This document shows, piece by piece, positions 2,819 to 5,954 of a stretch of 9,852 bases of DNA. Under the pieces are notes generated by a model. The model saw nothing but the letters and a program-made list of their open reading frames with translations. It was not told where the DNA came from and searched no databases. The DNA comes from a virus. Its lineage: Duplodnaviria; Heunggongvirae; Uroviricota; Caudoviricetes. The stretch spans positions 1-9,852 of IMG/VR virus record IMGVR_UViG_2778261346_000016; one strand, written 5' to 3'. Each line of letters begins with the position of its first letter. Position 1 is the stretch's first letter. The position numbers were made by a program, and so were the translations under genes.

Positions 2819-2991
2819 CGCTTTGCTCTCCTGCGTCTCTTTGCTGCTCGTCGTGCCGCTGCAATACCGGTATGGCGGCGCTTTGGTGCCGGGATGATGT
2901 TGTCAGCCATCAGGACATACGGCTTTGCAATTAGCGCAGAAGCCCAAAAACGAGTCGGGTACGGTAACAAGCCGATACATGCCACACGCAT
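2815..2991 (-). CDS. small protein with poly-Arg/Lys C-terminal tail, 58 aa
   Basis: Hand-translated: MRVACIGLLPYPTRFWASALIAKPYVLMADNIIPAPKRRHTGIAAARRAAKRRRRAKR. ATG 2991..2989 overlaps the TAA of the upstream 250-aa gene (TAATG); GGAGGT SD 7 nt upstream; its stop overlaps the next ATG (ATGA). Not in the track because it is under 60 aa. Confidence 0.45.
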   Translation of the reverse strand: MRVACIGLLPYPTRFWASALIAKPYVLMADNIIPAPKRRHTGIAAARRAAKRRRRAKR

Positions 2992-3743
2992 TACTCACCT
3001 CCTTTGATGCGAATGCCTGCGGCGCGGATTGCAGCGATGACTTCAGAAACTTTGTATGCCATTACCGTTTGGTAATCATCGTGAAAATCTGTTCGATGAA
3101 GCATGCTGCTACGTTCCGGGAGCGATATTTCCCGAGCATCCAGTTCCTTAACGCGTTCCTCCAGTTCGTAGACCCTGCATTGTTCTCTATCATCAATCAG
3201 ATATAACCCAAGACATTCGCTTTCTACCCAACCGCCAAAATCATGATCGTAACGCTCACATGAAAACTCACCGTCACCGTCCTTTGTTGGAATGGTGTAA
3301 CTATCTAATGGGCCACCATATGTCGGCACATTTCCCAATGTTGGATGCTCAATCCACATGAAAAATGCACGTCCGGTTATTGGGCAAATATCTGGCCGCC
3401 ATTGGTTACGAACAGCCTTGGTTTCGGATAATTCTTCAGCGTGTTGTTTTACTTCCTCAAGCTCAACTCTCAGCTTCCCTACCGTTAGCGCAATATCCTC
3501 GTTCTCCTGATCGCGGCGTTTTATGTATTGCTGGTTTCTTTCCCGTTCATCCAGCAGCGCCAGCACGGTTTCTGGTCCGGTCAGAAATTTGAAGGCGTTG
3601 AGCGCATCAATATCCACACCGTAATCTTTAAGTTCCTGTTCACTTAACAAATCATCATCAGCTGGCAACATTAACAGGCGTTCCATTGCTGGAATTGCAC
3701 GTTCCGCCGCCTCACGCAGTGCCTGGTAATTAATTTCGCTCAC
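2991..3743 (-). CDS. Ea22-like family protein (shared N-terminal module, unique C-terminal domain), 250 aa
   Basis: Initiates at GTG 3743..3741 (shown as M in the track) with an AGGAGG SD 7 nt upstream and a GTGA overlap with the upstream stop. N-terminus SEINYQALREAAERAIP is paralogous to the N-terminus of the next gene, which supports translation from this GTG. Confidence 0.6.
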   Translation of the reverse strand: MSEINYQALREAAERAIPAMERLLMLPADDDLLSEQELKDYGVDIDALNAFKFLTGPETVLALLDERERNQQYIKRRDQENEDIALTVGKLRVELEEVKQHAEELSETKAVRNQWRPDICPITGRAFFMWIEHPTLGNVPTYGGPLDSYTIPTKDGDGEFSCERYDHDFGGWVESECLGLYLIDDREQCRVYELEERVKELDAREISLPERSSMLHRTDFHDDYQTVMAYKVSEVIAAIRAAGIRIKGGE

Positions 3744-4393
3744 TGGTTGCCTCCTTTGCGAAGCTGGGCAGCAAAGTCAACTAACCACTCAGTCATTTCA
3801 ACCTTCCCTACCAGGTCTGAACCAGGGTGCATACAGCAATCACTCTGCGCCGCTTTGAAATCCTTATACTCATATTCTTGGGCCACCAGATTTTTTGCAG
3901 CTTCTATAGCAGCATCCACCCCCTGCGCCCGCACTTCAGACAGGAAAGCATCGGTAGCTGGAGTTTCGCTGTGGTGCAGGGCATCGTTGATAATCATTGC
4001 AGCAACTCCGGCCTGCCCTGCATCCGTGACCGACACATGCTCAAGAGTTACGGCCATTGCGTGTTTCAGCCCAGCGTTCTCTGCCACCAGCGCAGCGAGA
4101 TTAGTCTCAAGCTCTGAAATTCGGCACGTGGCATCAATATTTGTGTCCTCCAAGCACTTAATTTCACCAAGCAGCTCCAGTGCAACCTTTGGGTTGAACG
4201 CGGCAACATGACGAGCGTTGTTCTCTGCATTTTTCTGTCCATCAAAGCCGGTCCATTTGATAACGTCTTCACATCGTTCATCACCGGGCGTGTGCACCGC
4301 ATAAGTACCAGTATCCGTCGAAATAAATGCGACCCATTCGTCTGGTGTTGCCTTTTCTGCCGCCTCACGCAGTACCTGATAGTCAATTGTCAT
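3740..4393 (-). CDS. Ea22-like family protein, 217 aa
   Basis: Preferred start is ATG 4393..4391 (GAAGGA SD about 8 nt upstream, ATGA overlap with the upstream stop) rather than the track's ATG at 4402. Contains motifs LVAENAGLK and [11 protein letters not shown], shared with the gene at 5332..5793. Confidence 0.6.
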   Translation of the reverse strand: MTIDYQVLREAAEKATPDEWVAFISTDTGTYAVHTPGDERCEDVIKWTGFDGQKNAENNARHVAAFNPKVALELLGEIKCLEDTNIDATCRISELETNLAALVAENAGLKHAMAVTLEHVSVTDAGQAGVAAMIINDALHHSETPATDAFLSEVRAQGVDAAIEAAKNLVAQEYEYKDFKAAQSDCCMHPGSDLVGKVEMTEWLVDFAAQLRKGGNQ

Positions 4394-5034
4394 TCTCGCC
4401 ATCCTTCACAGTTGTAATCACTACAGCCTTCAAAATCATATGGGCTGTACTGCCAGGTTATTTTTCCGCAATGCGGACAATTCCAACGCACCTTCCCGCT
4501 TCGCGACTTCTTTCTTCTGTTCTGCTCTTTCAACCAGTCAGGCATGACCAAACCTGCGCCCTGAACCATTGTTCTGCGGTTAAAGTTATTGATATTGAAC
4601 GTCCGGCGCTTTGCTGCATCAGCAATGGAAAATGGCAACCAAACTATTCCTGGTTCGTTTTTGTTGACGACGCTAAAGATGGTCGCTTTACTGAAGTCAT
4701 CTGTTGGCAATCCACCGTGTTGAAGCCAGTAAACATCGTTGCCGTTCCAGCTACCTTTTTTGTAGGCCACATACTCAGTGCAATCTGACTCAATCAGGCT
4801 TTCTGTAGGGATGTACTGGCAATCAACGTGCCACACTGCCATTGTATCCACACTATCGGCACAAACAGGCTGATCTATATCTCGCCCACAATTCCAGGCT
4901 TTTTGGGCTTCTTCCAGCGTGTAAACATGAGCGAGATCGATATCAGAACTGTAACCATTGCCGTTATGGCAATGGAATGAAGCGTTATTACCCACAGTTT
5001 CACGCGAGCACATCATGTAAAAACGGTTACTCAC
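4390..5034 (-). CDS. Cys/Trp-rich hypothetical protein with C-terminal CxxC...CxxxxC cluster, about 214 aa
   Basis: Track ORF 4390..5127 trimmed. A GTG at 5034..5032 sits 7 nt after AGGAGG in the same RBS-start cassette seen at 3739..3759; an ATG-ATG at 5016..5011 is the alternative start. C-terminus WNCPHCGKITWQYSPYDFEGCSDYNCEGW; N-terminal FHCHNGNGY. Confidence 0.5.
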   Translation of the reverse strand: MSNRFYMMCSRETVGNNASFHCHNGNGYSSDIDLAHVYTLEEAQKAWNCGRDIDQPVCADSVDTMAVWHVDCQYIPTESLIESDCTEYVAYKKGSWNGNDVYWLQHGGLPTDDFSKATIFSVVNKNEPGIVWLPFSIADAAKRRTFNINNFNRRTMVQGAGLVMPDWLKEQNRRKKSRSGKVRWNCPHCGKITWQYSPYDFEGCSDYNCEGWRE

Positions 5035-5335
5035 TGGCTGCCTCCTTTGCTGGGCTTTCGAACTTCTGAGTGGTTGTATCAAACTCAAACAACTTAACCA
5101 CGTCATCAAACAGGACATAATCGCCATCAGAATCTTCAGTCATGTCAGCGCCACAATCCTGACCGCACGAGTCACAACCATCCATATCAAGCTCGTATCG
5201 CTTCAGGTTTGCGATATTTGATAAATTCAGCGCCAGTACAGCCAGGTCATAAACCTCTTCGGCAGTGACATCGCTGTTCAGTCCCATTTCATGGCGATAT
5301 ATGATTTTTTCTACTCGTTGTTTTGTGATTGTCAT
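5027..5335 (-). CDS. hypothetical acidic protein, 102 aa
   Basis: ATG 5335..5333 with GGAGGT SD about 9 nt upstream and an ATGA overlap with the upstream stop. Its 3' end encodes the SD for the downstream gene. No family recognised. Confidence 0.55.
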   Translation of the reverse strand: MTITKQRVEKIIYRHEMGLNSDVTAEEVYDLAVLALNLSNIANLKRYELDMDGCDSCGQDCGADMTEDSDGDYVLFDDVVKLFEFDTTTQKFESPAKEAASE

Positions 5336-5793
5336 TTTTGCTCACCTCCCTGTTCTTCCAGAAAAATACGCATAGCCTCAAGCATCTCTTCGGTGTCATA
5401 CGGTGACAACTTGTCACGCAGGATGTGTTCAATGCTGTTAATGAACTTGCGGATTGCTTTGCGTTCAATTTCAGCCAGGAAAGCATCGGTGGCTGGGGTG
5501 TCTGATTGCAGAGACTTTGCGCGATAGTCATTCCACCCTCTTGCATACATGGGATTAACTTGCACTCCATCTTTTACGCAATATGCCTGCCCTCCACGGT
5601 TGATAACCTTGATTTCGTCCATAGCGCCAGACTTCAGCCCCGAATTCTCCGCTGCCAGCGCCGCGCACTTGGCCTCCGCTTTAGCAAATTTACGCACCAG
5701 ATATTCAGCGTTTGTTTCGTTAACCTTTAAATCTCGTGGGATGCATTTACCTTTCAGAAATCCATCCATCTCAATTAGTGACATTTGTTTCAT
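5332..5793 (-). CDS. Ea22-like family protein (central motif paralog), about 153 aa
   Basis: The track starts at GTG 5811; the preferred start is ATG 5793..5791, which forms an ATGA overlap with the upstream stop (TGA 5792..5790). Motifs LAAENSGLK and [11 protein letters not shown] are paralogous to the 3740..4393 gene. Confidence 0.55.
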
Positions 5794-5954
5794 TTCTTCC
5801 CACTCCGCCACATCGCATTCAGATATTTGTTTTGATTTACTGATGGAAAAGAATTTCTCTTAAGTAATTCCTCTCTCGATGGCATTGGCTTTACGCGTTG
5901 GCGAATAATCATTTCTGCCGGAAGAATGTCGGGATTGTATGCAAGTCCTCTCAT
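5790..5954 (-). CDS. small hypothetical protein, about 54 aa
   Basis: In-frame part of track ORF 5790..6104. ATG 5954..5952 has a GAGGAA SD 7 nt upstream and lies 10 nt after the stop of the upstream 97-aa gene; the alternative ATG at 5972 has no SD. Confidence 0.4.

Follow-up and report, generated by a model that had tools for sequence, protein, structure and literature searches.

Short conserved linkers at the sites of segment exchange in the mosaic Ead/Ea22-like operon of an Stx2c lambdoid prophage

Introduction

The Ea22 proteins of phage lambda and of Shiga toxin (Stx) phages are described as tripartite, with a coiled coil that connects a short N-terminal segment to a C-terminal domain of variable type, and their genes as mosaic, with 2 or 3 variants per genome (PMC10834534, PMC7093339). 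Pro-lysogenic activity is known only for the Ea22 proteins of lambda and Phi24B (PMC7093339, PMC10834534), and all Ea22 proteins have been reported to end with a basic residue followed by Gly-Glu (+GE), a tail whose significance was stated as unknown (PMC7093339). Here, we analyze 5 consecutive genes, designated A to E, carried by a 9,852-nt stretch of viral DNA (IMG/VR record IMGVR_UViG_2778261346_000016, positions 1 to 9,852; hereafter, the window). Genes A and B are Ead/Ea22-like, and the short linkers that recur within and between the genes of this cluster are islands of DNA conservation at which the flanking segments reassort across the phage population.

Exchange at short shared sequences has a precedent in the boundary-sequence recombination model (Susskind & Botstein 1978 and, for HK620, Clark 2001, as cited in PMC3029335). 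The phage recombinases Red-beta, RecT, and Erf recombine diverged sequences far better than RecA does, and a third to half of lambdoid mosaic joints carry traces of flanking homology (PMC2327257, PMC3945230).

Similar to lambda Ea22 and the Pfam family PF13935 (IPR025153; Stx variants V1, V2, and V3), the genes studied here occupy the exo-xis/ea position in the leftward early operon, several variants stand side by side in one prophage, and a conserved short N-terminal segment and a predicted helical core are followed by unrelated C-terminal domains. Unlike in lambda, A, B, and E have no match to the solved Ea22 C-terminal domain in PDB sequence searches (E <= 1), which returned nothing but one noise match. 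Nor do they end with the K/R-G-E tripeptide: A terminates with KGGE, B with RKGGNQ* (the asterisk denoting the stop), and E with GGEQK*. Gene E, in addition, is not recognized by the Pfam model and has no N-terminal module. As in the boundary-sequence model, short conserved borders of modules are embedded in non-homologous DNA, one border joins different modules, and, as with Red-beta and Erf, the same phage carries a gene for a Rad52-like (ERF) recombinase; unlike in that model, 2 of the linkers lie inside genes, at borders between segments of the same protein. Finally, the operon resembles translationally coupled gene arrays, with ATGA or GTGA overlaps and Shine-Dalgarno sequences located within the upstream gene, but here a widely shared, portable unit of 15 to 21 nt fixes the last 5 to 7 residues of the preceding protein.

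Results

Four direct repeats define the linkers

The sequence-only reading that preceded this study had singled out 4 pairs of short direct repeats in the gene cluster, all of which were recovered by self-blastn: (a) 3689-3735 versus 4342-4388 (37/47 nt), (b1) 3935-3967 versus 5470-5502 (29/33 nt), (b2) 4065-4108 versus 5633-5676 (32/44 nt), and (c) 3739-3759 versus 5030-5050 (20/21 nt). The encoded peptides also agreed, with INYQALREAAERA for the N-terminal module (a) and TPATDAFL(S/A)E and L(V/A)AEN(A/S)GLK for the central modules. In an ungapped scan of every diagonal, with +1/-1 scoring, these pairs are the 4 top direct repeats of the window, scoring 27, 25, 20, and 19, respectively, whereas the best score in 60 dinucleotide-preserving shuffles averaged 15.9, with a maximum of 20. 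Repeats (a) and (b1) score higher than anything in the shuffles. Taken singly, (b2) and (c) are marginal, but as third and fourth best matches they exceed the shuffles, in which the maxima for the second, third, and fourth best repeats were 16, 16, and 15; comparative data independently validate (b2) and (c). The repeats had been ascribed to 3 genes, a number that has to be raised to 4, because the gene headed by the second copy of repeat (c), gene C, is not Ea22-like.

With the exception of the 21-mer (c), the copies in this genome are only 73-88% identical, which rules out recent gene conversion between them. The within-genome copies are family-wide conserved linkers rather than products of recent mutual exchange, because A and B agree at just 37 of 47 nt in their N-terminal modules.

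Breakpoints cluster and flanks reassort at the linkers

We compared the window with approximately 200 related loci and recorded the ends of all matches of >=150 nt with >=94% identity. The match ends cluster within a few nucleotides of each linker and also at every gene junction. The TPATDAFL linker of B is bordered by ends at 3932-3935 (n = 11) and 3960-3968 (n = 53), the LAALVAENAGLK linker of the same gene by left ends at 4065-4077 (n = 28), and its N-terminal module by ends at 4347-4357 and 4387-4388. Cassette copy 2, i.e., the second copy of repeat (c), is framed by ends at 5027-5030 (n = 24) and 5045-5050 (n = 38). For gene E, the ends fall at 5467-5470 and 5499 around the TPATDAFL linker and at 5646-5690 around the second linker (5633-5676). 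The Ea22 core of A shows the same behavior, its left match ends gathering at 3444-3471 (n = 48) and its right ones at 3562-3575 (n = 8).

When the 150 nt to the left and to the right of each anchor were clustered, extensive reassortment became apparent. The flanks of the cassette form 21 x 28 clusters, which occur in 85 combinations and include 37 four-gamete pairs, and those of TPATDAFL form 17 x 12 clusters in 33 combinations, with 4 four-gamete pairs. As controls, we used approximately 55 21-mers tiled over 2800-6300, most of which have 1 to 3 clusters; 52 of them lack any four-gamete pair. Each of the remaining 3 has a single pair, and 2 of these lie on nodes, namely, the Ea22 core (3490-3510) and the TPATDAFL linker of E (5470-5490), the third being located inside B (4240-4260). 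The 21-mer at the TPATDAFL linker of E has 13 x 10 flank clusters and those at the Ea22 core have 5 to 8; a few further controls reach 4 to 13 clusters on one side, where the flank extends into a neighboring node. At the protein level, the block preceding the linkers, variable segment 1, and variable segment 2 form 11, 14, and 16 clusters and yield 4, 7, and 9 four-gamete pairs, respectively; for instance, the E-type segment 1 occurs also with RKGGNQ-type C-terminal domains. Hence, short conserved DNA is flanked by non-homologous sequences in different genomes, and the left and right modules assort independently. The modular exchange proposed from the letters alone is thereby borne out: match ends cluster at the shared modules, and flank types reassort across the related loci.

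Individual genomes illustrate the pattern. A P1/P7-like phage-plasmid (p2RM9154-C1, locus L002) is 99.6% identical to the window over 2800-5046; the similarity stops inside the 5030-5050 cassette, beyond which an ASCH-like gene ending with ..IQGATSE* takes over. In one contig, a D-like tail runs straight into an Ea22 start, as would be expected if the 2 cassette copies had undergone exchange with each other.

As a separate observation, a block of approximately 2.2 kb, in which a 58-aa gene (2815-2991) is followed by genes A, B, and C, recurs at 96-99.6% identity in P1/P7-like phage-plasmids, including phage P7 (NC_050152). Such near-identity in otherwise unrelated phage-plasmids indicates recent exchange between phage families.

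Constant and variable segments of the Ea22-like genes

Gene A (2991..3743, minus strand, as are all genes of the region; 250 aa; WP_001289898.1 in RefSeq, with the identical GTG start) consists of the N-terminal Ea22 module (3689..3735; SEINYQALREAAERA), the Ea22 core, and a unique C-terminal domain with the tail IRIKGGE*. The core block (3445..3575, approximately aa 57-100, ...LLDERERNQQYIKRRDQENEDIA...) is a conserved node of reassortment. It is conserved as an island at the DNA level and, being present in a single copy in the window, was missed by the sequence-only reading.

Gene B (3740..4393; 217 aa, ATG start; WP_000151165.1) carries the second copy of the N-terminal module (4342..4388; TIDYQVLREAAEKA) and belongs to a large family, with more than 5300 relatives. 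Alignment of B with 18 database relatives revealed a fixed order of constant and variable pieces: a constant block ending with LAALVAENAGLK (4065..4108 in B, at the end of a conserved, putatively helical block) is followed by a variable segment, of which there are at least 5 unrelated versions, then by the constant (E)TPATDAFL(A/S)EVRAQG (3935..3967 in B, where it separates variable segment 1 from the C-terminal domain), by a variable C-terminal domain in at least 6 versions, and by the constant end ..FAAQLRKGGNQ*, which is the cassette. The constant pieces of the alignment are modules (b2), (b1), and (c). In gene E (5332..5793; 153 aa), both internal linkers, i.e., the counterpart of LAALVAENAGLK at 5633..5676 and TPATDAFL at 5470..5502, each the self-blastn partner of the respective B linker, appear in the same order as in B, with different segments around them. 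Judging from these alignments, the B/E type would be organized as beads on a string, with a start region and N-terminal helix, LAAENxGLK, the TPATDAFL linker, and AAQLRKGGNQ* as the recurring elements.

Conservation of the TPATDAFL linker extends to synonymous sites. In 57 unique contexts, anchored on the peptide so that the codon choice was free to vary, the third codon positions of the linker are 0.68-0.96 conserved, and those of the flanks are at the background of 0.3-0.5. The island is approximately 33 nt long, and its conserved synonymous sites include the non-preferred codons CCA and GCT.

Across its 9.85 kb, the window contains a single Chi octamer (4084-4091, minus strand GCTGGTGG). 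It falls within the LAALVAENAGLK linker of B, where ..GCG CTG GTG G... encodes it, a position that may be a coincidence; the homologous linker of E has the non-Chi sequence GCGCTGGCAG instead. We rejected a Chi hotspot as the cause of linker conservation, since this one Chi has no equivalent in the E copy and the sequence of the TPATDAFL linker does no more than resemble the octamer.

A portable 21-nt start junction

Repeat (c), which we refer to as the cassette (GCAAAGGAGGCARCCAGTGAG; in gene orientation, GCAAAGGAGGCA(A/G)CCAGTGAG), is a portable translation-initiation junction, composed of a Shine-Dalgarno sequence, 6 bases, and a GTG that overlaps the upstream stop. Copy 1 (3739..3759, minus strand; GCAAAGGAGGCAACCAGTGAG) forms the B-to-A junction and contains the RKGGNQ* codons of B (CGC AAA GGA GGC AAC CAG TGA), the Shine-Dalgarno sequence AGGAGG, the spacer of 6 nt, and the start codon of A, a GTG that overlaps the stop as GTGA. 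Copy 2 (5030..5050, minus strand; GCAAAGGAGGCAGCCAGTGAG) forms the junction between gene D (5027..5335; 102 aa, phrog_3126) and gene C (4390..5034; 214 aa, phrog_2457), with the GTG of C located 8 nt inside D. Here, the upstream frame is one over (GCA AAG GAG GCA GCC AGT GAG TAA), so that the tail of D is AKEAASE*, the cassette being read in a frame other than that of the B tail. Because the cassette is read in 2 upstream frames, its conservation acts at the nucleotide rather than the protein level. The succession of AGGAGG and GTG in both copies had been recognized in the sequence-only reading, though with a spacer of 7 nt in place of the actual 6.

Exact matches to the cassette were found in at least 120 viral contigs. 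In the 106 unique contexts examined among the matches listed, the conserved island covers approximately 20 nt upstream of the cassette and approximately 45 nt past its end, the latter corresponding to the Ea22 N-terminal module, and then falls to background. In the first frame, the upstream tails are ..LRKGGNQ* on Ea22-like genes and ..WRKGGNQ* on DUF2737 genes; in the second, ..EA[ATS]SE.. on at least 6 other genes. The downstream genes are mainly of the Ea22 type (VS[EK]I[ND]YQ...), with at least 12 unrelated N-termini as well. In a sample of 150 N-terminal modules from 80 loci that were chosen by B homologs, independently of the cassette, the core GGAGGC[ATG][AG]CCAGTGAGC precedes approximately 100 modules and another 38 follow a C-to-B junction as in the window; thus, a GTG behind this start region is the norm for the Ea22 family. 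Homologs of gene C always start with GGAGGCANCCAGTGA[GAC]TAACCG, behind at least 7 upstream gene families and in both frames.

Protein-coding conservation begins directly after the GTG, upstream of the first in-frame ATG, and more than 100 contexts preserve AGGAGG, the spacer of 6 nt, and the GTG. Together with the RefSeq calls, these features support the predicted initiation at GTG 3743 and GTG 5034. It had been anticipated that annotation based on ATG would miss these starts; this is not the case, since the RefSeq pipeline PGAP recognizes both, GTG 3743 as the start of A and GTG 5034 as that of C. By contrast, GTG 5811, the right edge in the sequence-only reading and thereby the implied start of gene E, is probably wrong: E probably starts at ATG 5793, because this codon forms an ATGA overlap with the DUF2737 stop, is the one called in RefSeq, and lies just ahead of the residue at which 2 PHROG profiles begin to align to E.

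Family membership of genes A to E

The description of the set as paralogs holds. Genes A and B match Pfam PF13935 (Ead_Ea22) with 103 and 83.5 bits, respectively, against a gathering cut-off of 27 bits, and both are named 'ead/Ea22-like family protein' in RefSeq. Gene E has no Pfam match at E <= 1 and, hence, does not reach the Ead_Ea22 threshold. However, it aligns with the B-family profile (hhalign probability 94.9%, E 4.4e-8, 76 columns), has PHROG families 614, 492, and 368 in common with B, and matches phrog_614 at 1.4e-54, suggesting that E is a profile-level relative of B and part of the same mosaic network rather than a Pfam member. Full-length pairwise homology among A, B, and E was ruled out, as BLASTP returns only linkers of 15-30 aa. 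Genes C and D produced only sub-threshold zinc-finger noise in Pfam, with no Ead_Ea22 match; they have the junction cassette alone in common with the Ea22 genes, not protein homology.

Searches of A to E against NCBIfam and PADLOC (anti-phage defence) returned no match and thus give no direct support to a defence-system reading. An AlphaFold2 model of B built from a 19-sequence alignment is poor and unreliable (pLDDT 51.3, pTM 0.35); the helices it predicts are located at residues 5-14, 68-119, and 148-212.

The +GE tail and the ribosome-binding site

The tails of the Ea22-like proteins can be read at the DNA level. In the examined loci, the +GE tail is encoded by AAAGGAGAG or AAAGGAGGTGAG, 7-8 nt ahead of the next start codon. 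Among 260 Ea22-like open reading frames (ORFs), 91 end with IKGE* (ATC AAA GGA GAG TGA K ATG), 63 with GGNQ* (the cassette), and 41 with (K/N)GGE* (AAAGGAGGTGAGTAATG). Each tail class precedes varied downstream genes, with IKGE* and (K/N)GGE* ending 1-8 nt before the start codon. In the window, the junction of A with the next gene (2989..3008, minus strand; ATCAAAGGAGGTGAGTAATG) is of this kind, the IKGGE* tail of A encoding the downstream Shine-Dalgarno sequence in a TAATG overlap. A non-Ea22 gene of 62 aa (2457-2645) likewise ends with ..TKGE* before ATG 2455 (junction 2451-2470). The codons AAA-GGA-GAG of the tail would form the ribosome-binding site of the next, presumably coupled gene, and such DNA also closes a non-Ea22 gene; the +GE motif would, therefore, most simply be a ribosome-binding site seen through the genetic code. 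This offers a simple explanation of the Ea22 C-terminal motif, for which a limited literature search found no paper giving the same reading, and it implies that conserved protein tails in such operons are not to be taken as functional peptide motifs.

The locus belongs to the early accessory operon of an Stx2c prophage

The 3.2 kb around the finding are 100% identical to the Stx2c-converting phages Stx2_EH1904 and Stx2_5044 and to a prophage of Escherichia coli O145:H28 strains RM12581 and RM13514. Matches to the operon are present in roughly 3200 E. coli records and 530 phage records. In the RefSeq annotation of the identical prophage, an integrase and a helix-turn-helix (HTH) regulator flank the low-coordinate side, and a DUF2737 gene, an anti-RecBCD gene, an ERF recombinase gene, and Kil flank the high-coordinate side, identifying the region as the leftward early accessory operon (exo-xis, or 'ea') of an Stx2c lambdoid prophage. 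As for lambda Ea22, the genes have the recombination genes on one side and xis/int on the other, and all of them are on one strand. The genes for the ERF-family and anti-RecBCD proteins are located no more than 1-1.5 kb from the finding.

Of the 11 consecutive junctions in the stretch bounded by the anti-RecBCD and DUF551 genes, 9 are stop/start overlaps (ATGA, GTGA, GTGAGTAA, or TAATG), among them the start of B with the stop of C (ATGA); the remaining 2 have gaps of 1 nt and 10 nt. The Shine-Dalgarno sequence of each gene sits within the last codons of the preceding one, as AAGGAG or AGGAGG 6-8 nt ahead of the start at cassette-type junctions and as a weaker purine-rich stretch at the others.

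Discussion

For the mosaic Ead/Ea22 operon of the Stx2c prophage as a whole, we consider linker-mediated exchange the probable explanation. Homologous or relaxed-homology recombination would take place inside linkers of 20-90 nt when related phages or prophages meet, its likely agent being a phage single-strand-annealing recombinase, as suggested by the ERF-family and anti-RecBCD genes immediately upstream. Selection would then retain those recombinants in which translational coupling and the integrity of protein domains are intact. Thus, of the earlier proposal of modular exchange by short-homology recombination, the sites of exchange stand, whereas for the mechanism the data locate the exchanges only.

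The alternatives differ widely in how well they fare against this evidence. Chance similarity of short sequences could be entertained for repeats (b2) and (c), whose scores of 20 and 19 are within reach of the best single shuffle (maximum 20), but the second to fourth of the top repeats exceed all 60 shuffles and each repeat recurs in tens to hundreds of independent contigs, which refutes this notion and leaves it a negligible probability. Another account would see A, B, and E as plain tandem paralogs, duplicated in one lineage and subsequently diverged, with no exchange of cassettes between phages. The adjacency of A and B, their common membership in Pfam Ead_Ea22, and the DNA identity of only 73-88% between the shared modules are as expected from such a history. 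Yet the segments between the linkers cannot be aligned, the cassette heads non-Ea22 genes too, the block 2800-5046 is 99.6% identical in otherwise unrelated P1-like plasmids, and all 4 combinations of flank types exist for many pairs, by which simple duplication is largely refuted; we regard it as very improbable.

The most serious rival holds that illegitimate, homology-independent joining occurs everywhere, that selection keeps only the joints at gene or domain boundaries, and that the linkers are conserved for their function, e.g., as a strong coupled start region, an oligomerisation helix, or a helix-capping hinge. Consistent with this scenario, the linkers fall at gene junctions or at the boundaries of predicted helices, TPATD being placed by the low-confidence model in a loop (141-147) ahead of a helix (148-173); the conservation of the N-terminal module is codon-periodic; and detectable homology flanks only about one third to one half of the mosaic joints in lambdoid phages (PMC2327257, PMC3945230). 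However, an identical 21-mer, including the spacer and the 5' GCAA, is kept in 2 frames and before unrelated genes, so that neither protein function nor the needs of ribosome binding explain its identity. Furthermore, the synonymous sites of TPATDAFL are nearly fixed on non-preferred codons, and the breakpoints map to the edges of the linkers to within a few nucleotides. The two-frame 21-mer and the fixed synonymous sites argue against illegitimate joining as the whole story, and we consider this scenario unlikely, though it deserves to be kept in view.

Several points nevertheless weigh against exchange mediated by the linkers. Breakpoints at the linkers could also be random joints filtered by selection, and the three-base periodicity of the N-terminal module reveals some constraint at the protein level. 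Moreover, 21 nt are short for efficient recombination; the island of approximately 85 nt, comprising the tail, the cassette, and the N-terminal module, is a likelier substrate, but it is absent at the D-to-C copy. The placement of linkers at domain boundaries is weakly suggested by the poor model of B (pLDDT 51). The contrast with the controls is inflated by the selection of the cassette loci for the exact cassette and flattered by the choice of control 21-mers, which are exact words of the window and mostly retrieve close relatives, and the contexts are phylogenetically non-independent.

A bolder extension of linker-mediated exchange is that the linkers jointly constitute a dedicated scaffold for cassette exchange, with the Ea22-like genes as oligomeric helical carriers whose inserts are swapped by the phage annealing recombinase under diversifying selection. 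The driver could be conflict of the phage with its host or with other phages, in the form of counter-defence, exclusion, or the targeting of different host proteins, and the linker DNA, its synonymous sites, and the Chi in LAALVAEN of B would be kept for promoting exchange. The inserts are hypervariable: in the approximately 200 loci, segment 1 exists in at least 14 versions and the C-terminal domain in at least 16. We regard a dedicated scaffold as speculative and rather doubtful.

Ea22 mosaicism and the boundary-sequence model are already published, and the genes, the family name, and the GTG starts are already in RefSeq. The finding, therefore, mainly confirms textbook lambdoid mosaicism, of which it is a clear but ordinary example of segment swapping. 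At the same time, because a single 21-nt junction occurs in at least 120 contigs, in 2 frames, and with dozens of flank combinations, the locus represents an unusually clean natural test bed for distinguishing linker-mediated homologous exchange from illegitimate recombination followed by selection. The near-identical blocks in Stx prophages and P1/P7-like phage-plasmids also bear on the movement of accessory genes among the phages of pathogenic E. coli.

Other features of the window

The anti-RecBCD (abc2-like) gene of the window (5965-6258) is intact, whereas that of E. coli O145:H28 RM12581 (L001 6666-8272) is interrupted by an insertion of the IS3 family; the window is, therefore, not the copy of that strain, despite the identity over 2800-6000. 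Upstream of the kil-like genes, at 7941-7988, lies an imperfect 48-nt palindrome (36/48 self-complementary).

The fifth-best direct repeat of the window (2626-2646 versus 2799-2819, 20/21 nt) is the start cassette of 2 small tandem paralogs (2457-2645 and 2642-2818), both of which start with MKNRKAK and belong to phrog_1380. The latter paralog is unannotated in the RefSeq record of the identical prophage, though flanked by ATGA overlaps at both ends. Adjacent to the former is an intact ORF of 171 aa (1940-2455, minus strand), for which RefSeq lists only a 'frameshifted' pseudogene (2277-2455). Searches of this ORF against Pfam, NCBIfam, and PADLOC returned no match, but it has full-length matches to phrog_9263 (2.6e-123) and phrog_631 (1.4e-94) and carries a D...ExK-like motif (DAMGF...LIEAK). 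The phrog_9263 profile spans both the 62-aa gene (positions 1-61) and the 171-aa ORF (62-230), implying that they form one fused gene in other phages, which in the window is divided at the junction AAAGGAGAGTGATATG.

Finally, the N-termini of gene D and of the DUF551 protein (MITITKERLLTIKQWRETYGPG..EEAEELARIAL; gene 1230-1943) are alike (BLASTP 44% over 39 aa, E 0.002) and represent another N-terminal module common to otherwise unrelated genes of the operon.

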